Of a stretch of DNA of 64,000 nt, positions 7,980-38,504 are shown in pieces. Source of the DNA: Minisyncoccota bacterium. Lineage in GTDB: Bacteria > Patescibacteriota > Minisyncoccia > Phycocordibacterales > JABAAK01. The DNA lies in NCBI GenBank assembly GCA_965204115.1, contig OZ241963.1, positions 468,622 to 532,621 of the forward strand, in the 5' to 3' direction. How positions within the stretch are numbered: the stretch's first letter is position 1; every line of letters begins with the position of its first letter. A program made the position numbers and the translations under genes. A model generated the notes under the pieces. It did not search any database. It saw only the letters and a program-made list of their open reading frames with translations, and was not told the DNA's origin.

Positions 7980-8255
7980 ATGGCTAATACAACAGCAGCA
8001 AAAAAGGCAATGCGGGTTTCTGCGAGGAAGCGGGTGTTTAACCTGCGTCGTTTGCGTGCGGTGCGATCGCTGATGAAAGAGGTAGTTACGAAGCATCGGC
8101 AAGGAGATGCCGCAGGTGCGCGTGAGCAGTATCAGGAGGCGCAGAAGGCGATTGACAAGGCGGCGAAGCGGGGAGTGATAAAGAAGCAGACAGCGTCGCG
8201 GCGGAAGGCGATGTTGGCGCGGATGATAAAGCCGGCAGCGGCAGAAAGTAAGTAA
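7980..8255 (+). CDS. rpsT: 30S ribosomal protein S20
   Basis: MANTTAAKKAMRVSARKRVFNLRRLRA... matches S20 (MANIKSAKKRA...). Basic, about 90 aa. Start set at the internal Met of the 7944 ORF. Confidence 0.8.
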   Translation: MANTTAAKKAMRVSARKRVFNLRRLRAVRSLMKEVVTKHRQGDAAGAREQYQEAQKAIDKAAKRGVIKKQTASRRKAMLARMIKPAAAESK

Positions 8256-8262: not shown

Positions 8263-8607
8263 ATGGAGATGATCACCATTGAACAATTCGCTGCGGTGAG
8301 GATGGTTGTCGGGCGGATTGTGTCTGCTGAGCAGATGCAGGGTTCCGATAAGATGTTGAAACTGTTGATTGATACCGGCGGTCCGCACAGTCGGACTGTT
8401 TTGTCCGGCATTGCGCAGCACTACACCCCTGAGGCACTTGTTGACCGAAAGTGCATTGTTGTGGTGAACCTGCAGCCGAAAGAGATGCTGGGTGCGGAGA
8501 GTAATGGTATGCTGTTGTGTGCCACCTACACTGATGGGCTTGGTGCTGAGAGTGTTCGTATTGTAGAGCCGGCACTCGGTATTCCGACCGGATCACCGCT
8601 CTCTTGA
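8263..8607 (+). CDS. Stand-alone tRNA-binding protein (CsaA/Trbp111/Myf-like OB domain)
   Basis: About 110 aa with VGRIVSAEQ...KLLIDTGG...VVVNLQPKEMLGAESNGMLL, typical of the EMAP/MetRS C-terminal tRNA-binding domain. Lies immediately upstream of metG. Confidence 0.7.
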   Translation: MEMITIEQFAAVRMVVGRIVSAEQMQGSDKMLKLLIDTGGPHSRTVLSGIAQHYTPEALVDRKCIVVVNLQPKEMLGAESNGMLLCATYTDGLGAESVRIVEPALGIPTGSPLS

Positions 8608-8655
8608 TGGTAGGCGGGTGTGGGGCATCTCAGGTTTGTGCGGTATTATGGGTAT

Positions 8656-13376: not shown

Positions 13377-16300
13377 ATGGATAAGTATGCTCGTTCTTTT
13401 CGGCAGGGGTTACGGCGTCCGATTTTGCTACTACTACTGCTTATTATGTCTTTTGTTTTTTATGCGACGACGCATGACACTTCTCGGGAAGGAGGTTCTA
13501 CTGTGTCGTATGCACAGTCGTCGACTTCTCGTGCCGCGTGGTTGGTAAAATCGTTTATTTGGAGTCGGGATGTGAATGCCTGGGCGCGGACGAACTGCAC
13601 TATGACAATCGGTGGGTTGGGTGCCACGGTGCTTGCTGCTTCAAGTCAGTCATATTGCAGCAACACCAGTTATGCAAACTTGAGTTTTCTGCAGTACTAC
13701 CATGACATTGATCCGGATGACACAACGCCGAACAATCGTTCTGATGATGTGTACGGCAAGATCAAAGGGCGTGCGTGGTCGCCGTTCTATGGAGTTATAT
13801 ACTTTGACCCCTCTGATTTTCCTTCCGCCGGTGCCGGTGCGTCCTGCTACGGGCTGACCGGGAATGATCGGCAGCCGCGGATAGAGCGACCCGAAGGCGG
13901 TAATGTGCGGATAGTCGGTTGTGCGTATGTGCCGCTTTTGCGTGATTATATTCTTTTCAACAGGTCCGGCGCGACGCATTCCGCTATGCCTTCTTCTTCC
14001 GAGTGGGGCGGGGTGCATGTTCTCACGGTGGAGAATGTTGCCAGTGCGTACCTCGTGCTGCGTGGTTGCGCGTGGTCAGCGTCAAATGGTTTTTGGGCAT
14101 TCGGATCGAACCAATCTTCTACCTCAGATGGCAAACAGAATTGTCTGCCGTCGGGACATAACACCAAGCTTAAAGCAGTGCTCCCTGAATCACGCATCGG
14201 CAGCCGCGGTGGTGTTTCGATTACAGTGAGTCCGACTCGCACCACCCTAAAAATCGGGCAGGAGGTTAGGTATCAGTACTTATGTCCTTCCGGGTATAAT
14301 ACCCCTACGCTTCGTATCGGCTCTCGGATTATTTCTACCGCCCTCGCACTTTTTCGTGGCTATCATAGTGAGATTTTCACTGACTCCGTGAGCGACCTCC
14401 TCCTTACCTGCACCGATGGCACTAATGTTTTCACCTCAGACCGCTCCTCTTCCGGTGCGATTGCTCCCTCGACTCAGAATTCTTTCTTTATTTCCTCATT
14501 TGCGGTTACTCCGTCTGTGCTCACTGAAGGCGGCTTTGTTTCATTCGGCGGCTTTGTGAGTAATCAGGGCAGTTTTGCGGATAGGGTTCCTGTTGACACT
14601 GCTACCGGGCACTGCGATAATACTCAGCGATATGGGTGTATTTACGGCGTTGCGAATGAAACGGTGATTGACGATAGTGATTCGTTGTATTATCAGTGGC
14701 GATGTGATGGGGTGGGCAATGCGGCACATTCAGGAATTTGTCAGATTCCGAAGGATTCTTCTCCTGCCGGTCTTTGTGATAATACTGTTCGCAATGGCTG
14801 CATGGTCGGCACTCCTAACGACGCTGCGGTTGTTGATATCCCTGCCTATTACCGTTGGCAGTGTGATGGTGTTAATGGTGGCAAGAACTCCGGTGCCTGT
14901 CAGTTTTCTACAAAGGCTGTTCTTGGTAATGAGGGCTACTGCACTATTACGAACAAGATTACCAAGCAGGAGATAAAGCGATTTGATGTTGACGGTATCA
15001 ATGTGGGTATCCCCGGTACTGATGTGGCAGTGCGGGATGCCGTGTATGATTTGCAGTGTCGGTATAAGAGGTTTAAGAGTGACGGAACTTTTGAAAAATG
15101 GCAGTCAGTTTCTGCCCCCCCTGTTACGGTGAAGGTTTTGCCGAGAAGTGTTTCTGAACGGAATGTTTCCGGTGCCGTTGACCCGCCGGTTTTTTCTGTT
15201 TCTAATGATACTGTTTCGGTGACCATCCCTCCCGGCGCTGCTATGGTGTATGTGTACCGTCTTAACCCTGCTTCTTCGAGCCAGGTTTCCCCAAGATCGT
15301 TGTACAAAATTTTTGTTGATCGTGATGCTGTTGAGCTGAGCAACAGTGAAACTGTTGATGAGCTGAAAGTGCGACTGTTTGAGTCTGCTGTGCGGAGTAG
15401 GGTAGTGGTGGTCGGTTCCCGCTCCGGAGGTATCACCAAATCTGCGGCCATCGGCAAGTCGCTGGTTGCTGCTGCACGAACCGTGAGCGGTGTATGGAGT
15501 CAGCAGACCGCATATACTTTCTCAGCTGATGGTTCCTGCGATGAATCGCTGCGCAATGGTTGCATTGTCGGTGCTGCCAATGATGAGGCGCTTGATGACT
15601 CCTCTACACACTATAGATGGCGATGTGATGGAATTGGTGGTGGGCGAGATTCTGTTGCTTGTGAAATACACAAGCCAATTGACGGCGGTTGGAGTGACTG
15701 GGCGTTATCTCCGGATGCTGTTCCTTGCGCAAATCCATTTACCCAGACAAGGGCTTGCAACAATCCGACACCGGCACACGGTGGTGTCGGATGTTCCGGC
15801 TCTTCAAGTCGTCCGAGTGTTGGGACGCAGTGTCGGTATAATGAGGTTTGCAGATATGGCTCTTGCGAGTTGTTGCCGTTCCTGTGTCCGGCAGGTTCTG
15901 TAGGTCCGAGTCCTGAGGTTACATATTGGGAGGTCGGAAGTCACAGATGTCTTTGGCGTGCGCCGAATAGGCAACCCACTCTCCCTGGTGCTTGGAGAGG
16001 GGATCGTTATACACTTCGTGCAAACACTGTTGTTAAAGGTGGCTATGAGGGATTTGGTTCGTTGGTGTTTGAGTGTCGAGGCTCCTATGATGATGTCAAG
16101 CGTTCTAATTGGAAGACGGTAGCCACCAATTGTGGTCCGGTTAGTACTGCTTGTGATACAGCGATACGCAACGGCTGCTTTGCCGGTACCGCTGTGGAAC
16201 TTGCCAGTTCTTCTACGCATTATAAATGGCGATGTGATGGGGTTGTTGGTGAGGTGTCTGTTGCCTGTGAGAAGCACTTGCCAGTTGACGGTGATTGGGG

Positions 16301-16676
16301 TGATTGGACACCGTCTGCGGATACCGTTGCTTGTGGAACTTCATTTGCTCAGACGAGGTCTTGTGATAGTCCGGCGCCGGCATATGGTGGTGTGGCGTGT
16401 TCCGGTTCTCCAAATCGCCGGGGTGTTGGGGAGCAGTGTTCGTCCGGTCGGGTTTGTGAGAACAATGTGTGTGTTTTGCAGTGTAGTAAAAAACGGATTG
16501 ATAGAACTTTAACCGGAGGTGGGGGTGCGATATGTCCATTCCAGGCCGAAGAGGTCCCTGTCGGACGAGGCACTTATACACTCAGGTCAAAAATTACTAA
16601 GTGGGGAACTGGTTCTATCGTGTTTGAGTGTAGAGATTCGGGGTGGGTTGAGGTGAGTAATGAATGTACCAGATAA
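13377..16676 (+). CDS. Large secreted Cys-rich repeat protein with two thrombospondin type-1 (TSP1) repeats
   Basis: N-terminal signal anchor. Six or more copies of a C-x5-(R/Q)(N/Y)GC-x-G...Y(Y/R)W(R/Q)CDG-x-G-x5-C module. Two segments match the TSP1 consensus: GGWSDW...C...TQTRAC.NPTPAHGGVGCSG and GDWGDW...C...AQTRSCDSPAPAYGGVACSG. Confidence 0.75.
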   Translation: MDKYARSFRQGLRRPILLLLLLIMSFVFYATTHDTSREGGSTVSYAQSSTSRAAWLVKSFIWSRDVNAWARTNCTMTIGGLGATVLAASSQSYCSNTSYANLSFLQYYHDIDPDDTTPNNRSDDVYGKIKGRAWSPFYGVIYFDPSDFPSAGAGASCYGLTGNDRQPRIERPEGGNVRIVGCAYVPLLRDYILFNRSGATHSAMPSSSEWGGVHVLTVENVASAYLVLRGCAWSASNGFWAFGSNQSSTSDGKQNCLPSGHNTKLKAVLPESRIGSRGGVSITVSPTRTTLKIGQEVRYQYLCPSGYNTPTLRIGSRIISTALALFRGYHSEIFTDSVSDLLLTCTDGTNVFTSDRSSSGAIAPSTQNSFFISSFAVTPSVLTEGGFVSFGGFVSNQGSFADRVPVDTATGHCDNTQRYGCIYGVANETVIDDSDSLYYQWRCDGVGNAAHSGICQIPKDSSPAGLCDNTVRNGCMVGTPNDAAVVDIPAYYRWQCDGVNGGKNSGACQFSTKAVLGNEGYCTITNKITKQEIKRFDVDGINVGIPGTDVAVRDAVYDLQCRYKRFKSDGTFEKWQSVSAPPVTVKVLPRSVSERNVSGAVDPPVFSVSNDTVSVTIPPGAAMVYVYRLNPASSSQVSPRSLYKIFVDRDAVELSNSETVDELKVRLFESAVRSRVVVVGSRSGGITKSAAIGKSLVAAARTVSGVWSQQTAYTFSADGSCDESLRNGCIVGAANDEALDDSSTHYRWRCDGIGGGRDSVACEIHKPIDGGWSDWALSPDAVPCANPFTQTRACNNPTPAHGGVGCSGSSSRPSVGTQCRYNEVCRYGSCELLPFLCPAGSVGPSPEVTYWEVGSHRCLWRAPNRQPTLPGAWRGDRYTLRANTVVKGGYEGFGSLVFECRGSYDDVKRSNWKTVATNCGPVSTACDTAIRNGCFAGTAVELASSSTHYKWRCDGVVGEVSVACEKHLPVDGDWGDWTPSADTVACGTSFAQTRSCDSPAPAYGGVACSGSPNRRGVGEQCSSGRVCENNVCVLQCSKKRIDRTLTGGGGAICPFQAEEVPVGRGTYTLRSKITKWGTGSIVFECRDSGWVEVSNECTR

Positions 16677-17715: not shown

Positions 17716-20700
17716 ATGTCGTTCTCTCGCTCTCTCTTTATCCTTTCCCTCATCCTTGGCGGGATGGTTTTCCTCCTCTTCGGCACTGCGCATGCGCGGG
17801 AGCGGCCCTCCTGGGATTCGTTCTCCTCGGAATATGCCGGTGTCGGTGTTGGGTATCGGGCAGGCGTGCGATTCTTTCGGGATGTCTCTGCTGATTTAGA
17901 GGGAGGAGACCCCACGCCGTCATTTTCTGTGAAAGTGGGGACCTCGCTTCCTGCGGGGCTGCAGCTCACCGGCACCGGCTATCTTGTTGGTGTGCCGACT
18001 GCCGCCGGAGTGTCGAAATTTACCATCGTGGCAAGCAATGCCTCCGGTATTGCGGAAAAACGGGTCACCTTACACATTCGTGAGCCATTCGGTGATACCA
18101 CCTATGGGCAGGGAGAGGTGCACAGCAGTATCCTTGATGCTCAAGTGTTTCTCAACAGCACCGATTGCCCGGTCGCGGCGTCAGGAGTAGGGTCACCAGG
18201 CAAGGAGGTTCTCTCATTCACTCCCGCCCTCAAGCAAGCCACCACCTGCTATCAACAGCTGCACTCTCTTCCCGCCACCGCCACCCTCACCCCGGCTCTC
18301 CTCCAACATTTCATCCAAACCTACACCGGTCGCTTTATTCCCGGAGATTTCACCCTGCCACCCGGTACCGTTCCGCTTTCTTCACCGCTCTGGAGTGATG
18401 ATCGTGTCACCTACACCACCTTTTCCAATGCACCCGTTACCCGCGACCTCTCTGATTCCCTTGTGCGCGGTTACCCCTCACCATCCTTTTCTGTGCAGGC
18501 AGGAACTGCTCTCCCGATTGGGCTTTCCCTCAGCGACTTCGGCATCATCTCCGGTACCCCCACCACTCCCACCACCGCTGATACCACCATTGTCGCCACC
18601 AATTCCTCCGGCAGCGCATCGTTTCGTATCGCCTGGACTGTGCGGGAAGGCGGGTACTCCCTCGGCTCCACCCACCCTGATGTTCGTCAGGCGCAGGTGT
18701 ACCTGAACGGCACTCCGTGTCCCATCGCCAGCACTGGCTCCGGTTCCCCCGGACAGGAGACCTCCTACTTCGGCACCAAGACCCGGCAGGCACTCAACTG
18801 CTACCAGCGGTTGCACAGCCTTCCTGTCACGAACACCATCACCCCAACGCTCCTCACACACCTGTCAAGACATTACACCCCTCCCGCTCTAAACAGACCT
18901 CAGGAGGTCTCCACACCTCTACAATCACCACTCGATCCGCCTCCTGCCCCTGCTGTTGTGCCCCAGGATGGTGTCTGCGATATCACTGTTTCGCAGGGAT
19001 GTGCCGTCGGCACCCCCGTTCAGCATGAACCCTCCTATATCTCCTTAGGAGAGCGCTGGCGCTGTCGTGGTGTCAACAACGGCTTCAGCTCTGACTGGTG
19101 TGTCCGCTGTGACGACGGCTATTCCTTTGACGGAAGAAACTGTTCCCGCAGCACCGCACAGGGTTCTCCCGGACTCCGCTGCTCCGGCACCACTGTCTCT
19201 TTCTGCCGCCTCCCTCGCTCTGCGCACGGCAATACCGTTGCCGGCGCCTGCTCCACAGGTCGCATTGGCTCTTGCGAATATGCCTGTCGTGACGGCATCT
19301 GGACTGCTGTGGCGAACAGCTGCACAAAACCAAGCCCGTGTGTCGGAAGCACTGTTGCCGGCTGTGTTCTGCAAGATACCCGACACGACACTCTCACCGA
19401 CGGCTCCTGTGCCGACGGCTCCACCGGCGCCTGCCGTTACCGCTGCACAAACAGTGTCTGGAAAGCTGTTTCTAACACTTGTGCTCGCGCCTGTGTTGAC
19501 GGTACTTTCTCCGGCTGCGCGGTGGACGCTGCTTCACACGATGCTGTCGGCGGCTCCTGTACTGCCGGCTATACCGGCTCGTGTGCGTACCGCTGCACTG
19601 ACGGCATCTGGAGCAGAGTTTCAAATACCTGCTCGGTGATACCTGTCGTGGAGAGTCAGAGGCGATCGTGTATCGAGGGCATTTTCTCCGGCTGTGCGCT
19701 GGACACCACCTCGCATAGTGCTGTTGACGGCTCCTGTGCCGTGGGCTATGTCGGCTCGTGCGCGTACCGCTGCGCTGACGGCTCTTGGAGTCAGGTTTCA
19801 AATACCTGTTCGGCAATATCTCCTGTGATGACTCAGGAGCAATTGCCCGGACCGTCTTTGGGCTGCTCGGCCAATGTTTTTTCTCACTGCGCTTTAGATG
19901 CTGTTTCTCACAGGGCGGTTGCCGGTTCGTGTGAGAGAGGGTACACCGGGTCCTGTCAGTATGCGTGTGGTAACGGGGAGTGGAATTTTGTTTCAAACAC
20001 CTGCACGCGACAGGCCTCCTTGGCCCAAAGAGTCATTACCCCGATAGTTTCCACCGTGTCGCGACTGGTCGGTGGCGGTGGCTCTACCAATGGCGAGGGA
20101 GGTGTTAGTAATGACGGGGGATATGTTAGGAAAAATACCGCATGCTTAGGCCAACAAAGTGTGGACGGTGTTTGCGACGGTCAGGGCGGGTGTTCTTCGG
20201 GGAAGAGGCGCGATCCGGGAGGGTCATACTGGACGCACGGCTCCTGTTCCGACGGCAATATTGAACGGTCGTACAGCTGTATAGGGCAGTGTGGCGGTTC
20301 AGACGCTTCATGCTCAGGCACTACGGTTTGTGATTTGGGGTGTAGTTATGGTTATGCACTTGATGGGGAAACCAGCAGCCCGCGGTGTAATAACTGCGCT
20401 TCGGACAGCGACTGTAGAACGGGAACTTTTTGCGAAAGGGGTCGGTGCATTATCGGTGTGGGAGCACGGGGGATTCCAACCTTCAGAATCGATCGTCTGG
20501 ATGAACTTCGTCAATGCGGGTGTGATACCTATGATGCGTTCTGTAGTAACAATCGCTGTACTTTCTGTTCTTGCAGCATCTTTGATGTCACGAAGAAGGA
20601 GTACAAATCAACCGGGAAATTGTGCAGTGTTACCTCTGATTGTTCAGGCGCTTCGGAAGTGGCGGGAGTTACCTGGGACAGCGAAGGGTGTCATTGTCAG

Positions 20701-22224
20701 CATTCACATGCGGACGGTTCTTTTCATGGAAATAACACACAGCATGGCACAGATGCTCAGGGTAACCGTGTTGACTCGGAGTGTACGGGTTGGTGCAGTC
20801 CCGGACCCTGCTATGAATCGGGCGGGATGTATGGCTGTCAAGTGGAGTGTGAGGACGGCATTGTAACGAAATCGAGCGGGTGCAAGAGCAGAGACGGTGC
20901 TTGGTGCGGCGGCGGCGGACTGGTGGGCACTCGCTGTTCTCGGGCCGCCGGCTCAGAAACACTCACGGCAAAAACACCTCCTAAGGTGGTTGACCGGACT
21001 AAAACTACCACAACAGGAACAGACACAGGAGGCGGCGCCGGCACAACGGGTGATGAGAGACGGCCTGATACGGGTAATGGCGGCACGATAGGCGGCACAG
21101 GCGGTGAAACAACCCTTGACTGCAGCAGCAGATCTTCCTGTCCGTGTCCGCAGAACGATTGGTGCTCCAGTGGTCAGGTGGGTACCTGTTCCTGTGTCCC
21201 CAACTCAGATGGAAGTCGCTGCATCCAAAGTCGTTCTTTGACCCCGTGTCCGCAAGGCCAAAACTGCAGCAACGGTTCATGTACAGGAGGAGGCGGCACA
21301 GGCGGTGAAACAACCCTTGACTGCAGCAGCAGATCTTCCTGTCCGTGTCCGCAGAACGATTGGTGCTCCAGTGGTCAGGTGGGTACCTGTTCCTGTGTCC
21401 CCAACTCAGATGGAAGTCGCTGCATCCAAAGTCGTTCTTTGACCCCATGTCCGCAAGGCCAAAACTGCAGTAATGGTTCATGCACCTCTTCCGGTGGCGG
21501 GAATGCCGATTGCCCGACGACGATAGAATCCTGCAGGTGCCATGGCATCAGTCTTTTCGGGGGATGTATCGGTACCTACTGGGAAAGAGTCAGGCTGTGT
21601 AATGGTGACGCACTCTCCAGAAAGTGTGGTAGTAGTACAACCAAAAAGAAAAAGGCCACTACTAAGGTTCGCGCTCCGGACAATCCCCCTAAAGGTCCGG
21701 AACCTATTCAAAACGTTCCCGCTCCAGAGAGGGCTGCCCAGAAAGCCCCTGTTCAAACGACTACCCAAAGGGCTCCTGTCCCTGTAGATGATACTCCTCC
21801 CTGCAGCTCTAATGAGTGTGGTTGTTCTAACACCGGGACATGGTGTCATGGGGGTTCATCAGAGAGGTCATGTTACTGCGCAGTGAGCAATGGGTCGTGT
21901 GTAAAGAAATATTCTACATCATCTTGCGCTAGTGGGGTCTGTAGCGGCGGGTCATGTACCTCAGCTGGCGATACTCCGAATAGTTATCCTCCAAAAAGTT
22001 ACTCGCCAAAAAGTTACTCTCCAAGAAGCTACAGTCCAAGAAGTTACTCTCCAAGAAGCTACAGTCCAAGAAGTTACTCTCCAAGAAGCTACAGTCCAAG
22101 AAGTTACTCTCCGAGAAGTTATCCCTCAGCGGATTACGGCGAGTGTTGCCACAGAGGGCACTGTCACACTAGGAGCAGGTCTTATGCAGACGGGGACCGG
22201 AGTTGCGAACACAAGAATGACTGA
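17716..22224 (+). CDS. Giant secreted Cys-rich surface protein with PG-binding-like and Ig-like domains, Cys modules and a SYSPR-repeat tail
   Basis: Signal peptide MSFSRSLFILSLILGGMVFLLFGTAHA. Two PG_binding_1-like segments (V..Q.YLN...GSPG.ET..FG..T..A..CYQ..H.LP.T..ITP). Six tandem C-x-DG-x-FSGCA-x-D...SH.AV.GSC..GY.GSC.YRC.DG.W modules. A duplicated 65-aa Cys unit. A C-terminal (SYSP[RK])n tail and a Cys/His tail. Confidence 0.75.
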   Translation: MSFSRSLFILSLILGGMVFLLFGTAHARERPSWDSFSSEYAGVGVGYRAGVRFFRDVSADLEGGDPTPSFSVKVGTSLPAGLQLTGTGYLVGVPTAAGVSKFTIVASNASGIAEKRVTLHIREPFGDTTYGQGEVHSSILDAQVFLNSTDCPVAASGVGSPGKEVLSFTPALKQATTCYQQLHSLPATATLTPALLQHFIQTYTGRFIPGDFTLPPGTVPLSSPLWSDDRVTYTTFSNAPVTRDLSDSLVRGYPSPSFSVQAGTALPIGLSLSDFGIISGTPTTPTTADTTIVATNSSGSASFRIAWTVREGGYSLGSTHPDVRQAQVYLNGTPCPIASTGSGSPGQETSYFGTKTRQALNCYQRLHSLPVTNTITPTLLTHLSRHYTPPALNRPQEVSTPLQSPLDPPPAPAVVPQDGVCDITVSQGCAVGTPVQHEPSYISLGERWRCRGVNNGFSSDWCVRCDDGYSFDGRNCSRSTAQGSPGLRCSGTTVSFCRLPRSAHGNTVAGACSTGRIGSCEYACRDGIWTAVANSCTKPSPCVGSTVAGCVLQDTRHDTLTDGSCADGSTGACRYRCTNSVWKAVSNTCARACVDGTFSGCAVDAASHDAVGGSCTAGYTGSCAYRCTDGIWSRVSNTCSVIPVVESQRRSCIEGIFSGCALDTTSHSAVDGSCAVGYVGSCAYRCADGSWSQVSNTCSAISPVMTQEQLPGPSLGCSANVFSHCALDAVSHRAVAGSCERGYTGSCQYACGNGEWNFVSNTCTRQASLAQRVITPIVSTVSRLVGGGGSTNGEGGVSNDGGYVRKNTACLGQQSVDGVCDGQGGCSSGKRRDPGGSYWTHGSCSDGNIERSYSCIGQCGGSDASCSGTTVCDLGCSYGYALDGETSSPRCNNCASDSDCRTGTFCERGRCIIGVGARGIPTFRIDRLDELRQCGCDTYDAFCSNNRCTFCSCSIFDVTKKEYKSTGKLCSVTSDCSGASEVAGVTWDSEGCHCQHSHADGSFHGNNTQHGTDAQGNRVDSECTGWCSPGPCYESGGMYGCQVECEDGIVTKSSGCKSRDGAWCGGGGLVGTRCSRAAGSETLTAKTPPKVVDRTKTTTTGTDTGGGAGTTGDERRPDTGNGGTIGGTGGETTLDCSSRSSCPCPQNDWCSSGQVGTCSCVPNSDGSRCIQSRSLTPCPQGQNCSNGSCTGGGGTGGETTLDCSSRSSCPCPQNDWCSSGQVGTCSCVPNSDGSRCIQSRSLTPCPQGQNCSNGSCTSSGGGNADCPTTIESCRCHGISLFGGCIGTYWERVRLCNGDALSRKCGSSTTKKKKATTKVRAPDNPPKGPEPIQNVPAPERAAQKAPVQTTTQRAPVPVDDTPPCSSNECGCSNTGTWCHGGSSERSCYCAVSNGSCVKKYSTSSCASGVCSGGSCTSAGDTPNSYPPKSYSPKSYSPRSYSPRSYSPRSYSPRSYSPRSYSPRSYSPRSYPSADYGECCHRGHCHTRSRSYADGDRSCEHKND
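21091..21482 (+). repeat. Near-exact tandem duplication (2 x about 196 bp) inside the giant gene
   Basis: ggcggtgaaacaacccttgactgcagcagcagatcttcctgtccgtgtccgcagaacgattgg... occurs twice back to back. It encodes TLDCSSRSSCPCPQNDWCSSGQVGTCSCVPNSDGSRCIQSRSLTPCPQGQNCSNGSC. Confidence 0.85.
22000..22125 (+). repeat. 15/30-bp in-frame microrepeat encoding (SYSPR)n
   Basis: agttactctccaagaagctacagtccaaga iterated, encoding SYSPRSYSPR about 8 times. Confidence 0.85.
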
Positions 22225-22520
22225 TCGCCTGGTGAGAACAACCCGCATACTGTGGGTTGTTTTGCCACAACACCGCTTCAGGGTTTGTGCGTCGGTCTGG
22301 CAGTGTGGGTATTGTTCATACACAGCGGCACATCCGTTCTATTTTCTGTATGGCAGCATGGTGATATATGAGACGGAGCATCTTTTCATATATCAACCTT
22401 TTCGTGACTTCTTTCCTGTTCACCTATAGTATTGTAAATTTGCTGGCGCACTTTTTTTCGCGGTATCTGTAGCAGGGTAGGATAGTTTTGTTTTTTGTTG
22501 TACTATATATGCTGTGGGCG

Positions 22521-22594
22521 GGGCGATTAGCTCAGTTGGCTAGAGCGTCTGGTTTACACCCAGAAGGTCGCAGGTTCGAGCCCTGCATCGCCCA
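22521..22594 (+). tRNA. tRNA-Val (anticodon UAC)
   Basis: GGGCGAT acceptor, D-arm GCTC-AGTTGGCTA-GAGC, anticodon stem-loop TCTGG-TTTACAC-CCAGA, T-arm GCAGG-TTCGAGC-CCTGC, 3' ATCGCCC-A. Confidence 0.85.
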
Positions 22595-22706
22595 CTAAAA
22601 AGCATTAGAAGTGTATGCTTGACATACACCTTTCGGCGGGTTGTCTTTGCGGCTGTATGGGGTGGGGTGGTGGGGCAGTGTTGTTCGTGCTGTATGATGG
22701 TGGTAT

Positions 22707-23438
22707 ATGGAGCCGGAGGTGCTGCATGAAGACGAGTATATCGTGGCTATTGATAAGCCGCACGGGTTGGTGGTGCATCGGGGCGTGGGCACGGATGAGA
22801 CGCTGGTTGATTGGATTCTTGATCGGTATCCGGAAATGCGGAGAGTGGGGGAGTCGGATTGTCAGTTGTTGCGGCCGGGGATCGTGCATCGGCTCGACAA
22901 GGATACCTCGGGGGTGATGGTGCTGGCGAGGCGGCAGGAGGCCTTTGCCGCCCTGAAGAAGCATTTTCAGAAAGGGAAAGTCGAGAAGGAGTACCATGCG
23001 TTTGTCTATGGAGAGCCGCGGGTCGCGCGCGGAACGGTCTCATTACCTATCGGGAAGAGCCGGTCTGATTTTCGGCGGTTTTCTGTGCGTCATACACGGG
23101 GGGAGCTGCGGCAGGCGCGGACGGAGTATGTGGTGGTCGGGTCGTGCACCGTGGGCGCTTCGTTTGTGCGTTTCTATCCGAAAACCGGGCGAACGCACCA
23201 GATACGGGTGCATGCTGAGTCAATGCACACGCCGATTGTATGCGATTCGTTGTATGCCGCTTCGCGGTCGCCGATGTTGGGGTTTTCCCGCCTGGCGCTG
23301 CACGCACGGCGGATATCGTTGCAAACACACTGGTACGATGAGACACTACACCTCGTCGCGCCGCATCCTGTTGATTTTTCAGAAGCGTTCTCTCTTTGTG
23401 ATGATGCGGTGCAGCAATCGGTTGCGTTTTTGGGGTAG
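22707..23438 (+). CDS. RluA-family pseudouridine synthase
   Basis: Catalytic motif HRLDKDTSGVMVLA plus HQIRVH, characteristic of the RluA/RluD family. Length 243 aa. Confidence 0.85.
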   Translation: MEPEVLHEDEYIVAIDKPHGLVVHRGVGTDETLVDWILDRYPEMRRVGESDCQLLRPGIVHRLDKDTSGVMVLARRQEAFAALKKHFQKGKVEKEYHAFVYGEPRVARGTVSLPIGKSRSDFRRFSVRHTRGELRQARTEYVVVGSCTVGASFVRFYPKTGRTHQIRVHAESMHTPIVCDSLYAASRSPMLGFSRLALHARRISLQTHWYDETLHLVAPHPVDFSEAFSLCDDAVQQSVAFLG

Positions 23439-23503
23439 TGGCGTTTTTGGTTCTCCACAATACGCATAATACTTGTTATGGTGAGGTGCTATAGTGCTTA
23501 TGT

Positions 23504-26062
23504 ATGTCTCCATTCTCGGCAGTGTGGCGTGTTTTCCTGCTTACCCTCGGTTTGACAGTGCTTATCAGCGTGGGTTTTCTCGGGGTGGCGGACGCGCAAG
23601 AGTCTACAACCCGCCGAAGCCCCTTGGATTTGGTAACAACCTGTGCCGCTGATGAATATGCCACCAGAACCAAAGAGGGCATCGTCTGCAAGGCGCCCAC
23701 AGACAACTGGGATAGTGAGGCCACCGCAGGCAGTCACTGCAGAACAGGACAGTTTCTGAAAGTTACCCCAACCGGCCTGCAGTGTTTTCCCTTCAGCGAC
23801 AAGACCAGCACCTACACCACCTACTGCTCCGACTGCTGCGGAGTTGAAGAATTTGCCGTCATCACTACCCTGGGGTTGCGTTGCGCGGGTGCCAGTTGTT
23901 CCAGTGACAGTGAGTGTGCTGGTAATGCCCACTGTGACCCCATCATCAACCGCTGTGTGCAGTGTGTCGGTGACAACTGCGGGGAGTGTGTCTGGGACAC
24001 TAACTACTCCTGTGATTCTGCGCAGCCGACAAAACGGGTCAAGCATTGTCGATTCTCCGGGGTTATACGGAATACGCAGTTCCTGACCTGTCCGCATAAC
24101 GGGACCTGTTCGGGTGGGGCGTGTGTGTGTGTGCCGAAAACTTCCGGGGGCTGGACTGCCGCGCCGTCGTGTGCCGCGCCGTCCTCCGTGCGGTGTGACA
24201 CAGCCATTCCCGATAAGTATGGCACCTGTCGGTACGGCACCACTGCGGCTTGTGAGACGATACAGTGTACCGGCACGCGACCGACGCGAACCTGCACCGG
24301 CAGGGGTACCTATTGCCCGACCGGTCAACAGTGTGGCGTGTATGGCTGCTATTCTCCGACAGGCACCTCCCCTTCTTCATACAGTCCTGCTTCGTATAGT
24401 AGTGCCCCTTCTTCATACACTCCTTCCTCCTACCCCCCCTCCTCCTATGTTGACTCCCCTCCTTCCTATCCTATTGTTGACCCCCCTCCTTCTATTGACT
24501 GCAGCAGCAAATCCTCTTGTGGGTGTTTACAAGACCAGTGTGTGGGTAATCAGGCGTACAGTTGCTCCTGTGTCGCTCGTTCGGGTCGCTGCGTTCTGAG
24601 TCGTACGCTGACCCCGTGTTCGCATGGTTGTAGTAACGGTTCATGTGATGATGACAGCCGAGGGAAGGGGGGAGGTGTAGGTGTTCGTGATCAAGGAGGC
24701 AGTTGTCCTTCGCCGAGCTACACCTGCGGTAATTGGAGCGGAGGATGTCTTACGGCGGGCAGTTTTGGCGGGTTGGTTACCGGGAACAGCAAGATACGGA
24801 GGTGTACCTGTGAATCTGAAGGCTGCTGTGATCAGGGGTCAGAGTGGTTAGAGCACGGGAATTGTAGTCAAGGCACATCAACGAATACGAAGAAGACATA
24901 CACCGGCACATGGTCAAGAGGGAGTTGTAGTTCCTCGAAAAAGATCTGTGGTATAGGAAACTTTGAGACTGAAACTTTCACCTGCTCTGTGACCTGTTCC
25001 GGAGGCGCCTGCGATCCGACTACAAAACCGAGCGGATCATACAGTGTTGAAGGAGGGTGTTGTAATGGTGGGGTAGGTATAGCATGTACTACTGATGTGC
25101 AAAGAAAACAATATGAAGACACAAGGAAGGGCGCAGAACTTGTCGTAGACACCCTCACAAGTAACCATTGTCATACGGGTGGTCGGTGTGTAACATGCTC
25201 TTCAATAGTCGGTGGACATGAGGACACCGGTCATGGTTGCGGCCCTCATAATAGTGACAGCTCTGCTACCCCCCCGTCCTACCCGCCGAATAGTTACCCT
25301 TCAGATAGTGAAGATAGTGATACTCCTCCCTGCAGCCCTAATGAGTGTGGTTGTTCTAACACCGGGACATGGTGTCATGGGGGTTCATCAGAGAGGTCAT
25401 GTTATTGCGCAGTGAGCAACGGGTCGTGTGTAAGGAAATATTCTACATCATCTTGCGCTAGTGGGGTCTGTAGCGGCGGGTCATGTACCTCAGCCGGTAA
25501 TACTCCGAATAGTTATCCTCCAAAAAGTTACTCGCCAAAAAGCTACAGTCCAAAAAGTTACTCTCCGAGAAGTTACAGTCCAAGAAGTTACTCTCCGAGA
25601 AGTTACCCTTCAGATAGTGATACTCCTCCCTGCAGCCCTAATGAGTGTGGTTGTTCTAACACCGGGACATGGTGTCATGGGGGTTCATCAGAGAGGTCAT
25701 GTTATTGCGCAGTGAGCAACGGGTCGTGTGTAAGGAAATATTCTACATCATCTTGCGCTAGTGGGGTCTGTAGCGGCGGGTCATGTACCTCAGCCGGTAA
25801 TACTCCGAATAGTTATCCTCCAAAAAGTTACTCGCCAAAAAGCTACAGTCCAAAAAGTTACTCTCCGAGAAGTTACAGTCCAAGAAGTTACTCTCCGAGA
25901 AGTTACTCCAAGAAGCCGAGAAGTTACAGTCCAAGAAGTTACTCTCCGAGAAGTTATTCCTCATCATCAGCGAGCCTCCATTGTCATTGGGGTGGTAAGT
26001 GCAGAACCTGCGGAGAAGGTCAAGGACACGAGGATACTGGTCACAGTGGTTGCAGTCATTAG
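23504..26062 (+). CDS. Giant secreted Cys-rich protein, paralogous to the C-terminal half of 17716..22224
   Basis: Signal peptide. Many Cys-rich modules. Two tandem copies of TPPCSPNECGCSNTGTWCHGGSSERSCYCAVSNGSCVRKYSTSSCASGVCSGGSCTSAG followed by SY(S/P)P(K/R) repeats. His/Cys tails HCH.GG.C.TC...GHEDTGH.GC. Confidence 0.75.
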   Translation: MSPFSAVWRVFLLTLGLTVLISVGFLGVADAQESTTRRSPLDLVTTCAADEYATRTKEGIVCKAPTDNWDSEATAGSHCRTGQFLKVTPTGLQCFPFSDKTSTYTTYCSDCCGVEEFAVITTLGLRCAGASCSSDSECAGNAHCDPIINRCVQCVGDNCGECVWDTNYSCDSAQPTKRVKHCRFSGVIRNTQFLTCPHNGTCSGGACVCVPKTSGGWTAAPSCAAPSSVRCDTAIPDKYGTCRYGTTAACETIQCTGTRPTRTCTGRGTYCPTGQQCGVYGCYSPTGTSPSSYSPASYSSAPSSYTPSSYPPSSYVDSPPSYPIVDPPPSIDCSSKSSCGCLQDQCVGNQAYSCSCVARSGRCVLSRTLTPCSHGCSNGSCDDDSRGKGGGVGVRDQGGSCPSPSYTCGNWSGGCLTAGSFGGLVTGNSKIRRCTCESEGCCDQGSEWLEHGNCSQGTSTNTKKTYTGTWSRGSCSSSKKICGIGNFETETFTCSVTCSGGACDPTTKPSGSYSVEGGCCNGGVGIACTTDVQRKQYEDTRKGAELVVDTLTSNHCHTGGRCVTCSSIVGGHEDTGHGCGPHNSDSSATPPSYPPNSYPSDSEDSDTPPCSPNECGCSNTGTWCHGGSSERSCYCAVSNGSCVRKYSTSSCASGVCSGGSCTSAGNTPNSYPPKSYSPKSYSPKSYSPRSYSPRSYSPRSYPSDSDTPPCSPNECGCSNTGTWCHGGSSERSCYCAVSNGSCVRKYSTSSCASGVCSGGSCTSAGNTPNSYPPKSYSPKSYSPKSYSPRSYSPRSYSPRSYSKKPRSYSPRSYSPRSYSSSSASLHCHWGGKCRTCGEGQGHEDTGHSGCSH
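25307..25915 (+). repeat. Tandem duplication of an about 300-bp cassette (2 copies, above 95% identical); a third about 90%-identical copy lies in the neighbouring gene at about 21791..22100
   Basis: The stretch gatactcctccctgcagccctaatgagtgtggttgttctaacaccgggacatggtgtcatggggg...agttactctccgagaagttac is repeated with a period of about 300-309 bp. The homologous stretch in gene 17716..22224 differs at a few positions. Confidence 0.85.
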
Positions 26063-26161: not shown

Positions 26162-26190
26162 AAACAACCCGCGATATTGCGGGTTGTTTG
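26162..26190. terminator. Bidirectional terminator hairpin between convergent genes
   Basis: ACAACCCGC-GATATT-GCGGGTTGT with A/T-rich flanks. Lies between the stop of 23504..26062 (+) and the stop of 26198..28063 (-). Confidence 0.6.
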
Positions 26191-26197: not shown

Positions 26198-28063
26198 CTA
26201 CTTCGGGAGCCAGGTGTCGACCCACTTGAAGCGGTTGGGGGCCTGCTCCCTGGTTAACTCACGAGTTATTGATAGCCAGTAAAGAGCATAGAATTCGGCG
26301 GCATTTTCAGACATGTCGTTTCTGTAGTATGGGTCTTGATCAAGGATCAGATGTTCTCCGACTTCTGCCCGATCTTTCCTTGTTGCCTCTATAAATGCCT
26401 TGCCTTCTGCTGTCTCTTCCCAGTCAAACACACTGCCGCTGCCGTCTATGGAAACCACGGCGTGCTGATGTGCGTGGGTGATTTCATGCACAAGTATTAC
26501 TCGAAAAGTGAGTTCGTTAAAATCCTTAAGTGCCCAAAGCGTCCAAACTATTCCATCGCCGTACCATCCGCCGGATCTCATCGGAGTTGACAGTTCTCTG
26601 GCATCAACATACAGCAGGTCGTGCACCACCGTGACTTTGCTTAACACCTTTCGCGCTGTATCCGGCCATCGGTGTCCCACCAGTATGTTTCCCGGGGTGT
26701 TTTGCACATCTTTGGGGAAATTCATCTTTACCCCATTTGCCAGTGTTGTCGGGCGGGAGCGGTGCACCAGCACCTCTTTGGGCTCAAAGCCCTCCTTCTC
26801 CACACGCAAGTGTAGTGCCTCTCCTCCGACATTGCGGAAGATGTATCGTCCGTCTCGATCGGTGATGATTCGTTTCCCGGATACCGGTCCTGACAGTGCG
26901 GTGACGGTTGCTCCCGGTACCGGATATACGCGGGAGCGGTAAAAATGTTTGGCACTTATCGGCTGTTGGGGAATATACACAAATCCGGCGAGGTCTTGCG
27001 CACCGGGGCGGGCGGTGTCTCTCGTGATTATCTCCGGCGGTGGTTCCAGTATGTGCAGTGTTTCTGCATGCACATACTGCTTGGCCATTTTCACTCCGTT
27101 CTTGCTTGCGCTTTCCCTGCCGACAATAAGGGTGAATTTGCCGCGGTCGTTGGGCTGTATCCGATATTTGCCGATATAGGTTGCGGGAGTTTTGCCGGGT
27201 TTGGTGTCACCAGGGGCATAATACTTCCCTGTGGCATCAAGCGGCACGATGTTGTGCCGAATATCCCTGCCGTCAATACGGTAATACAGTTTCGGACGAG
27301 CGTTGATGCCATCTGAAACTGCCTGCTCCATTTCCTCAGAGAACATTATCTTGGTGTAGACAAGTGTCCCTGGTGGTATGGCGTCAGTTATTGGTTTCGT
27401 TAATCGTCCGTCGCTGTAATAGCCGACCGATTTAACCGTTGGAGCTGAAGGTTTCCCGAGCCGCAGCTTCTCCTTGTGCGTGTAAAACGCCGGGAGTGCG
27501 TTGCCCTCAAGGTCAACACTCAATTTGCCGATAGCAAACACAAATTCGCCAGTATCTTTCGGTTGTACGGTATATTTACAGATAAAGGATGTCGTTGTCT
27601 TTCTCGGTTTCGCATCGCCGGAAGAAAAATCTTCACCCTTCGCGCCGAAATCCGCGATATTGAAACGGGTGGTTTTCCCGTTTATCCTGCGATACAGGAT
27701 GGGACGGGATTGCTTGCCATCAGCAACAACCAGCTTCATGCTCTCAGAGAACTCCACCTTGATATAGATGGTTTTCCCTGCAGGTACCGCTCCGGTCAAT
27801 GGTTTTGTTAACTTCCAGTCGCTGTAATAGTTGACTGATTTGACTGTCGGAGCGCCTTTCACTTTTTGCAACATCGGCGCGCCGGGTGCGGTGTCTGGCA
27901 TTTTCAAGCTGCCGACTGTCTCCGCAGCGTCTTCTTTTATTCCGACCGGGTTTTCTATCTCTTCGTCGCCGCAGCCGGTGATATGTATAGCAAATACAAT
28001 AATTGCGCACATCACTGCCACAATATGGATCAGGGATACCTGATCCAACCTTTTCCTTCTCAT
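26198..28063 (-). CDS. Secreted lipoprotein zinc metallopeptidase (HExxH) with two duplicated N-terminal beta domains and a CarboxypepD_reg-like domain
   Basis: Lipobox HITGC. Internal duplication VKSV(N/G)YYSD..LTKP...(about 120 aa, two copies). Segment TVTALSGPVSGKRIITDRDGRYIFRNV. C-terminal VILVHEITHAHQH (HExxH) followed by EFYALYW. Confidence 0.6.
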   Translation of the reverse strand: MRRKRLDQVSLIHIVAVMCAIIVFAIHITGCGDEEIENPVGIKEDAAETVGSLKMPDTAPGAPMLQKVKGAPTVKSVNYYSDWKLTKPLTGAVPAGKTIYIKVEFSESMKLVVADGKQSRPILYRRINGKTTRFNIADFGAKGEDFSSGDAKPRKTTTSFICKYTVQPKDTGEFVFAIGKLSVDLEGNALPAFYTHKEKLRLGKPSAPTVKSVGYYSDGRLTKPITDAIPPGTLVYTKIMFSEEMEQAVSDGINARPKLYYRIDGRDIRHNIVPLDATGKYYAPGDTKPGKTPATYIGKYRIQPNDRGKFTLIVGRESASKNGVKMAKQYVHAETLHILEPPPEIITRDTARPGAQDLAGFVYIPQQPISAKHFYRSRVYPVPGATVTALSGPVSGKRIITDRDGRYIFRNVGGEALHLRVEKEGFEPKEVLVHRSRPTTLANGVKMNFPKDVQNTPGNILVGHRWPDTARKVLSKVTVVHDLLYVDARELSTPMRSGGWYGDGIVWTLWALKDFNELTFRVILVHEITHAHQHAVVSIDGSGSVFDWEETAEGKAFIEATRKDRAEVGEHLILDQDPYYRNDMSENAAEFYALYWLSITRELTREQAPNRFKWVDTWLPK

Positions 28064-28378
28064 TCTGGTTTCCTCCTCAAAATAGCGTTACAAGACCTTT
28101 TTAGGGTCTTTTTTGTTAAGGCTCAAACTACAGTTATTATACAATACTGTAGCAAATATGCAAGTTACCGTAGGCACTTGCTGAGCGATATTATCTGACT
28201 TTACCCCGCTCTTCTGGCACCAGTATACCGCACCCCTTTCTCGCTGCCAATACCGATTTCTTGTTTTTGCAGTAGTCGGTTTGGTGCGGAAGGGGGTGGG
28301 ATAGGTTGGGGTGAGGGGCTCTTTGATTATTGTGTTGCATTTTCCGCCGTGTATTTTTTCAGGGTTGTATACTGGGAA

Positions 28379-31300
28379 TATGGTTGTGCGTTGTTTTTTC
28401 TATCTCTTTCTTTTTTTTGGACTATTCTTATCACCGGTTGCCATCGCGGAAGGTGCTGTTGTTTCCGGTGCCGCTCCGGGGGAGATGAAAGATGTGTTGG
28501 TGGATTGCCTGTCACTGGCGGATGAGCGGGATGCCTGCTATGCGACTGCTTGCGAGTATGAGCCCGGGTACTTGTGTGCGGAAGATGTGCTTGATGTGGT
28601 GGTAGAGATTGCCGGTCCGGAGCGAGCGATGGGGGTGCTGCACGAGATAATGGCGAGCCCTGTGTTTGCTATTACCTCTGACGGGCATCTGTTATCGCAT
28701 ATTGTCGGTCGAGCGACATCGCGCGTGTTCGGCTCTTCAGGGAACAATTTCTTGCGCTGTCCTTCTGACTTTAACAACGGTTGTTTTCACGGTTTTTTTG
28801 AGGACACCCTTCCGAAATCGGATTCGCCGGTGGATGTGGTTGTTTCTATTTGCGAGAATATGCCTCCTGACACACCGTTGAAAGAAAAATCCTATTGCTA
28901 TCACGGTGCGGGGCATGTGTTTATGATGCAGGTGAGCCATGATCTTGATGCTGCAATTGATCTTTGCCTGCAGGTGCCTGAGAATTGGTCGGAGAGTTGT
29001 TGGCAGGGGGTTTTTATGGAGAATGCCGGTGAGCGGGAGTGGGAATTGAAGCGGAAGAATTTTCGGGAAGATGAGCCATTGTATCCGTGTACCGCTGTTG
29101 AAGATCGTTTTAAGACCGAGTGCTATGTCAATCACCACGGATATCTTATCCGGCACTATAGCGAGTCATGGGATGAACTTGTTGCTGTATGTCTCGGTGC
29201 GGAGGATTTCACGCATGCCTGTCTCGGTGGCTTGGGGCTCATGCTCGGCAGTGATTTTTGGACTACCATCGTCGCTCAAGGGACACCTGTTGAAGGTAGG
29301 CCCCACACGGAGCAGGTGGTTTTTCTCTGTAATCAGTTTCCCTATGATTACATAGATGTTTGTTACTCCAATCTTATCCCTTCGTTTCTTAATTTTGACG
29401 GCACGGATATTCGAAATGCCTCAGGGGTGTGTGCTCTTGCCGATGCAGAGCATCGGCATGCTTGCTTCGAGCGCATCGGCTCTTACCTGAGTAATTTAGT
29501 TTCCGATGAGTCGGAAAAGATTGCTGTATGCCATAGTGTTCCGAGAGAATATCGTGATGCGTGTTTGGGTGTGCGTTCGGAAGAGTTTGATGGATATGTA
29601 GATAGGGAGGTGTCCGAGGGCACTGCGGCTAATGGTTCCGGTTCATTTTTCTCTAGAGCAGTTCAGTTTCTTTCCGCGTTATTTGGCCGTTTAGCAACGG
29701 CTTTTACGCGACCGGTGCATGCACATTCTGGTGGTAGTGATGAGCAGGATCTGTCTCGGTATGCGCACCCTGAATTGCATCAAGGTCTTGAGGTGTGTTT
29801 ATCGTTGCAGGAGGGGAGGGATATGTGTTATTTGTCTCTGTGTGATGGTGCTGTTGGGTTTCTTTGTGCGGAGGATGTACTGCATACCGCCACGGTCGGT
29901 TTTGGTCCCGAGGTGGCGATGCAGGTGTTGGAGGAGATGATAGCAAGCCCCCTTTTTTCATTCAATGCGGCGAACGAAGGGCACAGCTTGGCGCATGCTA
30001 TTGGGAGAATAACTGCACAGCACTTCGGTGGCACCGGCGATGCCTTTTTGCGATGTCCCACTGCACTTGATTATGGCTGCCAGCATGGGTTTCTTGAGGA
30101 TGCGTTGATTAGAGTTGACTCTCCCGCGGAGGCGGTGACGAATATTTGTGAAAGTTTGCCGGCAGTGCCGACGATAGGTCGACCGAATTGCTACCATGGT
30201 TCGGGGCATGGAGTGATGATGAATGCGAGCTATGACCTTGCTGAGGCACTTGCTGTGTGTGATCAGGTTCCCGATCCTTTGAGTTGTTTTACCGGAGTTG
30301 CTATGGAGAATGTGAGTGGGAAGACCTCCGGTAGAATACAGGAACTATATGCAGAGCATGACAGTTTTGAAAAAGATAACCCGCTGGCGCCCTGTGACAC
30401 ACTGACTGACACACTTCATCGCAGGGCGTGTTATCGACAGCACATGCCGTATTTGGCATCTTATTTCAGCCATGACCTGCAGGATGTGGTGGATGCCTGT
30501 CTTGGTGCGGGTGATCCTGTTGATATTCGTGATTGTGTGTTTGGCTTCGGTGCGTATGGTATCTATGACGGCATTCAGGAGAGTTTTCTTCACGGTTTTG
30601 AGGGTGATTTTATGGACAAAATAATTATTATGTGCAATCAGTTTCCTGAGGAATACCGCATGCATTGCTACACACCGGCGATTGATCAGTCGACTGTTTT
30701 TTATCGGGTGAAAAGGGCTTCTGATTTTTGTTATAAGATTGACGCGCGATACATGCGGGAGTGTTTCAATGTCATCGGCGATCGTTTGAGGAGTTTAGTT
30801 GTTGATCGTGACGAGACAGAAGCAGAGTGCTCTTCAGTTCCTGAGGAGTATCGGATTGAGTGTACTGATCCGCATCGGCATCAAGGGGAAGATGTCTCTG
30901 TTGATACGCCTTTTGGCGTGATAGCGGTTGAGCAGGCATCCGATTCTTTATTTGCGTGGGTTAAGCAGCTTCTTTCTGACATTGTTGCGGATGTATTCAG
31001 TGTGCTTGGTATGTTTGCTCGCCCTGTTTCCGCGCAAAGTGTTGCTGTGCCTTTAGCTGAAGGGGTGGAAAAATGTTTGGAGCAAGGGGGTGAGGTGGCG
31101 TGTTATGCTTCGCTGTGTGCATATGAGTCAGGGTATTTGTGCGCGGAGAGTATTTTGGAGGTGGTGACGAAAGGGTGGGGTCCTGAGGTTGCTATGGAAA
31201 TACTGATGAATATGATACAGAGCCCACTTTTCTCTTTTAGTCCGTCATCAGAGGGGCATAACTTAGCTCATACCGTTGGTCGGGTTACAGCGCAATGGTT

Positions 31301-34651: not shown

Positions 34652-34707
34652 TAGGTTGCAGTGTTTTACTGAAATTGATGTTGTGTCATACTGTTACTAT
34701 TGTGCTT

Positions 34708-38495: not shown

Positions 38496-38504
38496 CAGTG
38501 TTTA

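Follow-up and report, generated by a model that had tools for sequence, protein, structure and literature searches.

A module and array cassette shared by two large Cys-rich secreted proteins of a Kaiserbacteria-like bacterium

Large, very cysteine-rich extracellular proteins that are clustered, associated with FG-GAP proteins and variable between strains have been described from Candidatus Peribacter riflensis, a member of the Candidate Phyla Radiation (CPR), and a role in attachment has been proposed for them (Anantharaman et al. 2016, PMC4736985). In this study, two genes for proteins of this kind were analysed in a stretch of 64,000 nucleotides (nt) from a Minisyncoccota bacterium (contig OZ241963.1, positions 468,622 to 532,621), hereafter the window. 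Gene 1 (17716-22224, forward strand) encodes 1502 amino acids (aa), of which 112 are Cys (7.5%), and gene 2 (23504-26062, forward strand) encodes 852 aa, of which 84 are Cys (9.9%). Like the Peribacter proteins as the passages of that paper on them describe them, both are large, begin with a signal peptide, contain roughly 7-10% Cys and stand in an island of exported proteins together with FG-GAP proteins, in a small symbiont-like genome. CPR membership, signal peptide, length, Cys content and clustering all place them in this class as those passages define it, which is descriptive and not based on homology. They differ in that the present organism is Kaiserbacteria-like whereas Peribacter belongs to the Peregrinibacteria class, and the same passages make no mention of a 10-Cys module, of Tyr/Ser/Pro arrays or of cassette identity between genes. 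It is this cassette of module and array, together with its exchange between genes, that is new here within a protein kind already known from CPR; since large variable Cys-rich extracellular proteins of CPR have already been described, the advance is incremental.

Secreted surface proteins with identical tandem repeats in frame are also known from Gram-positive bacteria, where the alpha C/Rib and SD-repeat proteins vary by intragenic recombination, and from mycoplasmas, where Vlp/Vsa proteins vary in size; in genes 1 and 2, as in these systems, unequal recombination is expected to vary length. Unlike them, however, genes 1 and 2 have no LPXTG, no lipoprotein anchor and no domains in common with them, and here one cassette is common to two non-homologous genes. 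Sortase anchoring was rejected for both products, whose C-termini are polar Cys/His tails lacking LPXTG and whose only hydrophobic stretch is the signal peptide.

The window is part of a bacterial chromosome and encodes PolA, MetRS, ClpP, SOD, RecA and FtsK. The closest named matches of its MetRS come from Candidatus Kaiserbacteria and Patescibacteria, with relatives in ENA reaching 91% identity, and one relative of gene 2 is held by a metagenome-assembled genome (MAG) of Ca. Kaiserbacteria; by these matches, the organism is a Kaiserbacteria-like bacterium of the small-genome Patescibacteria (CPR). Proteins identical to the products of gene 1 (P0013, 1502 aa) and gene 2 (P0001) are present in the public protein collection, both from the same 661,662-bp contig. 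Between the two genes lie a tRNA-Val gene (22521-22595) and a gene for an RluA-type pseudouridine synthase (22707-23438).

One cassette in two unrelated genes

A preliminary description of this locus had reported two giant Cys-rich surface proteins with shared units, SYSP[RK] arrays and Cys/His-rich C-termini. All of these features are present in both genes, and at 1502 and 852 aa the products are better called large than giant. The shared sequence had been taken for two separate units of 58 and 60 aa, here units A and B. These match each other in tblastn at E values of 1e-6 to 1e-7 and all 10 Cys are invariant in their alignment, hence both derive from one module of about 57 aa with 10 Cys and have since diverged.

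Unit B and the SYSP[RK] array that follows it are 91% identical in nucleotide sequence between gene 1 and each of the two gene-2 copies over 304-346 nt (blastn, E 1e-125 to 1e-140), and unit B is 95% identical in amino acids. The gene-1 side of this tract spans about 340 nt (21789-22128) and its edges are sharp: identity begins abruptly at GATACTCCTCCC and stops just past the array, and the flanks are unalignable. Codon comparison of the module core revealed 8 differences in about 225 nt (some 96.5% identity), five of them synonymous and three non-synonymous, all being transitions and running in both directions. The two gene-2 copies of unit B and array show no difference at all over 288-295 nt, and the array counts 9 units in gene 1 against 6 in gene 2. 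Unit A, on the other hand, is only 56% identical in amino acids and 66% in nucleotides between the genes, so that the near-identity claimed earlier for both units holds for unit B with its array and not for the 58-aa unit.

The N-termini assign genes 1 and 2 to two gene families, and the C-terminal halves of the homologues are unrelated. In the gene-1 homologues (P0014-P0019), similarity is confined to roughly the first 560 aa, with He_PIG, PG-binding and some Cys modules, after which they run on into FG-GAP or other modules; in the gene-2 homologues (P0002-P0012) it extends over the first 200-300 aa only, beyond which they are unrelated mosaics of Cys modules. Unit B is carried by neither set of homologues, which indicates that the block moved between non-orthologous genes. 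Judged from the sequence, one cassette has recently been moved or converted between two otherwise unrelated surface-protein genes of this lineage and was then duplicated in gene 2. The gene conversion or cassette exchange put forward in the preliminary description is thus supported as a past, recent transfer by the core identity, the unalignable flanks and the cassette-free homologues. Its expectation of in-frame variation in length and copy number agrees with the perfect 300-nt tandem of gene 2, the difference in array length and a 201-nt tandem of unit A in gene 1, in which the copies are 94-98% identical in nucleotides and the differences gather at the 3' edge of the unit. Overall, the reported observation is confirmed, and most of the evolutionary interpretation given with it was correct.

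Copies could also have been kept alike in a static, ancient domain under strong purifying selection, with no recent gene conversion; the 10 invariant Cys and the conserved Gly and Ser positions would fit such a history, as would the few changes that Cys-rich folds tolerate. However, only 5 synonymous differences separate the genes in about 75 codons and the copies within gene 2 have none, the low-complexity array is conserved at the nucleotide level along with the module, and unit A, of the same family and in the same two genes, has drifted to just 66% nucleotide identity. Moreover, a close unit B was found in no homologue among 1.84 billion representative proteins, and the synonymous differences already point to a dS between the unit B copies well under that of paralogues across the genome. 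We consider purifying selection a highly improbable explanation.

It is also conceivable that the 300-nt tandem, and perhaps the identity between the genes, came about as repeats of a MAG were misassembled or joined into chimeras, since a tandem of 100% identity is a structure poorly resolved by short-read assemblers. Such an artefact seems very unlikely in view of the reading frames, which are intact across all repeats, of the 8 core differences and the unequal arrays, which show the copies of gene 1 and gene 2 to be distinct and not a single repeat that was collapsed, and of the deposition of identical proteins from the 661,662-bp contig. Equivalent 99% tandems are found, furthermore, on independent long contigs, including a circular one of 647 kb at 465x.

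This circular contig (647,271 bp), whose MetRS is 75% identical to that of the window, holds the genes for P0010 and P0034 in the loci L001 (10001-13645) and L005 (6001-10560). The two are gene-2-family paralogues with 98.5% identity over the first 538 nt, then 84% and then much less, a mosaic consistent with a second case of gene conversion. At their C-termini, module and array are repeated in tandem at 99% identity, the periods being 231-264 nt and 243 nt, and P0035 contains 390-nt units at 99% identity. Since mosaics and 99% tandems thus occur in relative genomes, homogenisation and amplification driven by recombination appear to be general for these genes. The adjacency of a gene-1-family and a gene-2-family gene was not seen at P0015, the single other gene-1-family locus examined.

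Near-identical short segments in surface-protein genes might raise the suspicion of programmed hypervariation, whether through the target of a diversity-generating retroelement (DGR), through silent cassettes of the pilS/vls type or through frameshift phase variation at microsatellites, and CPR genomes do carry DGRs. The mismatches, however, are transitions in both directions and not adenine-specific, and no reverse transcriptase is encoded among the window open reading frames (ORFs) scanned. Silent-cassette variation as in pilE/pilS or vlsE was likewise rejected, as every copy in the 64 kb belongs to one of two full-length genes that have signal peptides, and promoterless extras do not occur there. 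As for a contingency locus with frameshift phase variation, the repeat periods of 15, 30, 201 and 300 nt all lie in frame within the coding sequences, and since every period is a multiple of 3, frame switching by these repeats is impossible. Programmed hypervariation is therefore regarded as extremely improbable.

The 10-Cys module, its arrays and its carriers

The module is very rare. A profile search (HMMER) of the 1.84 billion representative proteins returned five proteins at E<=1e-3, namely both window proteins, P0034, P0035 and P0036; P0010 bears one further copy, which brings the known carriers to six. In five of the six the module adjoins short Tyr/Ser/Pro repeats. Gene 1 has SYSP[KR] repeats after unit B, and gene 2 has degenerate SSYSP/SSYTP before unit A, SYPP before unit B and SYSP[KR] after it; P0034 consists of four successive blocks of module and (SSYSP)n, and arrays precede the module in P0036 ((PSYPSYPTYGGGG)n) and P0010 (PASYS type). 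Across the carriers the charge of the array varies and the Tyr-x-Pro periodicity is kept. The module has no match in Pfam and no significant match to PDB in a profile search, and its AlphaFold2 (AF2) model consists of all-beta hairpins with a confidence (pLDDT) of 82. A degenerate DNA scan of JGI metagenomes found no match to the unit B peptide CGCSNTGTWCHGG. Another such scan found 68 loci with any (xYxPx)4 array, mostly short microsatellites of non-coding appearance; the module is present at none of them and they gave no functional clue. A few of these loci are (SYSPR)n or (SYTPR)n tails that end unrelated secreted proteins (L052, around 8350-9900; L023, around 7275-8025), which suggests that basic Tyr-Pro pentapeptide tails arise repeatedly at the C-termini of exported bacterial proteins. 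Literature on Tyr-rich pentapeptide surface repeats and on links between Kaiserbacteria and sponges yielded nothing specific.

Several known repeats recall parts of this architecture. In peritrophins and insect intestinal mucin, CBM14 chitin-binding domains alternate with Pro/Thr/Ser mucin linkers; membership of the module in CBM14/peritrophin-A was rejected at the sequence level, as there is no match to PF01607, no PDB sequence match and 10 Cys instead of 6. Periodic Tyr-Ser-Pro is also found in the C-terminal domain of RNA polymerase II (YSPTSPS), in SPXX/SPKK motifs and in plant extensins; here it comes with a basic residue, is likely extended or rich in beta-turns and is a candidate for O-modification. 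Unlike the polymerase domain, the present repeat is a pentamer and not a heptamer and belongs to extracellular bacterial proteins, the composition being similar without homology. The (PAYTP)n array of P0002 is annotated as Extensin_1 (PF02095). With the pentapeptide-repeat proteins of PF00805 the arrays share a 5-residue period only, and that family was rejected: there is no Pfam match, and its A[D/N]LXX beta-helix motif and the structure expected from it are unrelated to SYSP[RK].

The further features of the two proteins are listed in Table 1. In gene 1, whose ORF opens at TTG 17608 and whose ATG at 17716 gives the signal peptide, He_PIG reaches the Pfam gathering score when the segment is scanned alone and is missed in the full-length scan; the distant matches of gene 1 all carry PF05345. 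With its He_PIG and PG_binding_1 domains, the head of gene 1 probably provides non-covalent attachment to peptidoglycan. The Cys modules of about 59 aa that follow it (C..G..GSC.Y.C.DG.W..SN.C) also occur in homologues of both the gene-1 and the gene-2 family. The PG-binding-like and Ig-like N-termini noted in the preliminary description are thus present in gene 1 (PF01471, PF05345), but in gene 2 Pfam detects neither PG_binding_1 nor He_PIG, and a different, uncharacterised Cys-rich domain takes their place. This head of some 250 aa is 43-54% identical across 11 homologues, with more than 20 invariant Cys. It matches nothing in Pfam, NCBIfam has no match to gene 1 or gene 2, and a PDB profile search with the head alignment gave nothing significant. 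Its AF2 model is of low confidence (pLDDT 56) and was therefore left out of the fold search. The signal peptide of gene 1 was read directly from the sequence.

A Cys/His motif of the form C-x-H-x(1-2)-H ... H-x(1-3)-H ... C-x-H recurs in genes 1 and 2, P0002, P0010 and P0034 and is loosely conserved in both families; the gene-2 version, HCHxGGxCxTC...GHEDTGHxGC, occurs twice. It might be a metal-binding site.

Possible roles of the exchanged cassette

CPR are generally assumed to live on other cells, and few of the molecules that establish this contact have been described. We propose, with moderate confidence, that cassettes for the C-terminal stalk and for adhesion are shuffled by recombination in surface proteins of a Kaiserbacteria-like epibiont. 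Genes 1 and 2 would encode mosaic proteins that are rich in disulfides, leave the cell through the Sec pathway and reside at its surface or in the extracellular matrix, each made up of a vertically inherited N-terminal head and a fast-evolving C-terminal stalk. In the stalk, the lineage-restricted 10-Cys module, putatively folded into beta-hairpins, would alternate with extended Tyr/Ser/Pro short-repeat arrays, which are cationic here, (SYSP[RK])n. The block of about 340 nt with module and array was recently copied between the genes, in this view by non-allelic gene conversion or by illegitimate or homologous recombination (recA lies at 49760-50842 of the window), and next duplicated in tandem within gene 2. 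Arrays and the 201- and 300-nt units would then alter their copy number in frame through unequal crossing-over or slippage. As a likely outcome, the exposed stalk or adhesive region that contacts a host cell or a surface would differ in length, in valency and in charge. A surface location, adhesion or binding of glycans or polyanions, and a selective value of the variation are what we infer, the adhesion or host-contact role resting on analogy and on the lifestyle expected of CPR. The locus offers a concrete and very rare building block that moves and multiplies among surface proteins of otherwise unrelated families, and the module, as well as the pairing of gene 2 with a putative metallopeptidase (see below), provides testable handles on host attachment and strain-level variation.

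Several points weigh against this proposal. Neither protein has a cell-wall sorting signal or a membrane anchor, the only hydrophobic segment being the signal peptide, and since gene 2 is without a recognisable wall-binding domain, its product may be released and not bound to the surface. The array of P0034 is neutral SSYSP, which weakens a role in polyanion binding. If short reads underlie the genome, its perfect 300-nt tandem could be a product of faulty assembly. Ongoing polymorphism is a prediction, the sequences compared being those of assemblies. Of the 'variable adhesin system' seen in the preliminary description, exchange and length change are upheld, whereas the adhesin function, like any polymorphism within populations or stock of silent cassettes, is conjectural.

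Alternatively, module and array may form a structural, cross-linking or mineral- or metal-interacting element of a matrix, such as a cement, a sheath or an S-layer-like coat, and not an adhesive or a stalk, with the Tyr residues cross-linked or modified and the Cys/His tails binding metal. A composition rich in Tyr, Pro, Ser, Lys and Arg with a period of 5 residues resembles that of extensins, mussel foot proteins and silaffins, motifs of the form CxHxxH...HxxxH...CxH recur in the five proteins named above, and unrelated secreted proteins end in SY[ST]PR tails. The resemblance is compositional only, however, no gene for a tyrosinase, peroxidase or hydroxylase was identified in the window, and conservation of the His motif is poor, 3 His being invariant among the aligned sequences. 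A matrix element is thus rather unlikely, and the shuffling of stalk and adhesion cassettes remains our preferred explanation. Quite unlikely is, in our opinion, a more far-reaching version of that explanation, according to which module and Tyr/Ser/Pro array would make up a lineage-specific 'holdfast' unit of ultra-small epibionts. The disulfide-knotted module would bind glycans in a CBM14-like manner, and the cationic array, once its Tyr are O-glycosylated, hydroxylated or cross-linked, would serve as an adhesive or as a cement in the way of silaffin or mussel-foot peptides; the partner gene would drive maturation or release of gene-2-family products, and cassette exchange would tune the host range.

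The convergent partner gene and the neighbourhood

Directly downstream of gene 2 and convergent with it lies a lipoprotein-like gene, referred to here as the partner, and a homologue of it holds the same position in 7 of the 8 gene-2-family loci. Besides the window these are L001 (13690-15354), L005 (10620-12239), L003 (11047-11916), L004 (11178-12173), L077 (7138-8586) and L002 (9533-10099), L076 (P0004) being the locus without partner; the remaining flanking genes vary among the partner-bearing loci. In Pfam the partner matches CarboxypepD_reg only, and nothing in NCBIfam. Its C-terminal motifs across homologues, HE[IL]xHA[HR]QH ... ENAAE ... APNR[FYM][KR]W, look like those of a gluzincin-like domain, and the protein is a putative metallopeptidase. 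The conserved arrangement suggests that the gene-2-family gene and the partner form a functional couple, perhaps in processing or release. Identity between the partner genes downstream of the L001 and L005 paralogues is 91% at one end and falls to 73% in the remainder.

Table 1. Features of gene 1, gene 2 and the partner gene, in window coordinates
Feature	Position	Strand	Remarks
Gene 1, Sec-type signal peptide	17716..17796	+	aa 1-27, MSFSRSLFILSLILGGMVFLLFGTAHA / RERP (...GTAHA / RERP); read by eye
Gene 1, He_PIG putative Ig domain	17902..18063	+	PF05345, aa 63-116, E 4e-8, 34 bits (cut-off 24)
Gene 1, first copy similar in sequence to PG_binding_1	~18103-18390	+	under Pfam threshold
Gene 1, second segment similar to He_PIG	~18388-18675	+	below Pfam detection
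Gene 1, PG_binding_1 domain	18670..18858	+	PF01471, aa 319-381, E 7e-7, 29.8 bits (cut-off 23)
Gene 1, run of ~59-aa Cys modules	19123..20265	+	motif positions; repeat 19492-19843 at 74%
Gene 1, tandem pair of unit A (58-aa 10-Cys module)	21090..21486	+	period 201 nt; copies 21112-21285 and 21313-21486; Tandem Repeats Finder (TRF) row ends 21482
Gene 1, unit B (59-60-aa 10-Cys module)	21793..21969	+	high-identity tract begins 21789
Gene 1, array SYPPK-SYSPK-(SYSPR)7	21982..22116	+	9 units; DNA period 15 nt, super-period 30 nt
Gene 1, Cys/His-rich C-terminal tail	22141..22221	+	ECCHRGHCHTRSRSYADGDRSCEHKND
Gene 2, Sec-type signal peptide	N-terminus of 23504-26062	+	MSPFSAVWRVFLLTLGLTVLISVGFLGVADA / QEST
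Gene 2, N-terminal Cys-rich domain defining the family	23594..24352	+	...EYATxTxxGIxCK...TTLGLRC...; homologue alignment
Gene 2, degenerate Tyr/Ser/Pro linker	24353..24490	+	SSYSPASYSSAPSSYTPSSYPPSSY...; directly upstream of unit A
Gene 2, unit A	24491..24655	+	56% aa / 66% nt identity to gene-1 copies
Gene 2, internal Cys/His motif	25166..25261	+	HCHTGGRCVTC...GHEDTGHGC; 64% identical to the gene-2 C-terminal tail
Gene 2, perfect 300-nt tandem of unit B and SYSP(K/R) array	25312..25906	+	100% identity, score 1190
Gene 2, unit B copies	25322-25498, 25622-25798	+	inside the 300-nt tandem
Gene 2, pentapeptide arrays	25511-25600 (6 units), 25811-25900	+	DNA period 15 nt, super-period 30 nt
Gene 2, extra SYSPR units and Cys/His-rich tail	25922..26059	+	units 25922-25951; tail HCHWGGKCRTCGEGQGHEDTGHSGCSH at 25979-26059
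Terminator-like hairpin, 11-bp stem	26162..26189	.	between the convergent stop codons; consensus match only
Partner gene, lipoprotein-like	26198..28063	-	lipobox ITGC; two ~135-aa repeats; CarboxypepD_reg; C-terminal HEITHAHQH...ENAAE...APNRFKW

Many large exported proteins are encoded at 13-44 kb and 54-58 kb of the window, and they are of the Cys-rich, FG-GAP, dockerin, DUF11 and PG-binding types; by this gene content genes 1 and 2 belong to an island of large secreted or surface proteins. Upstream of gene 1, a secreted Cys-rich protein of 1099 aa (13377-16676, forward strand) has no Pfam match; it contains modules like the thrombospondin type-1 repeat (GGWSDW...C...R.C.NP.P..GG..C.G) and repeated modules of the form C(D/N)xxxxNGC.(V/A)G...D......Y.W.C.G..GG....C, and these module types recur in P0010, P0034 and gene 1. 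Beyond the partner, the surface-protein island to which genes 1 and 2 belong continues at 28311-44451 with more large exported products. One is an FG-GAP_2 protein of 1702 aa in which a stretch of about 450 aa occurs three times, others are an FG-GAP/ASPIC/dockerin protein (36294-38495) and a DUF11 protein (42472-44451), and several ORFs of this run fall into no family. A second large PG_binding_1 protein of 1316 aa (54448-58398, forward strand) is possibly paralogous to the head of gene 1. Genes of possible defence or toxin-antitoxin type are dispersed in the window, namely Fic/DOC (6592-7767, forward strand), an M78/IrrE-like gene (59751-60941, forward strand) and a Schlafen AlbA_2/HATPase_c_4 gene (40441-41874, reverse strand), and an AlbA_2/HATPase_c_4 gene is also found near the P0010 gene in L001.

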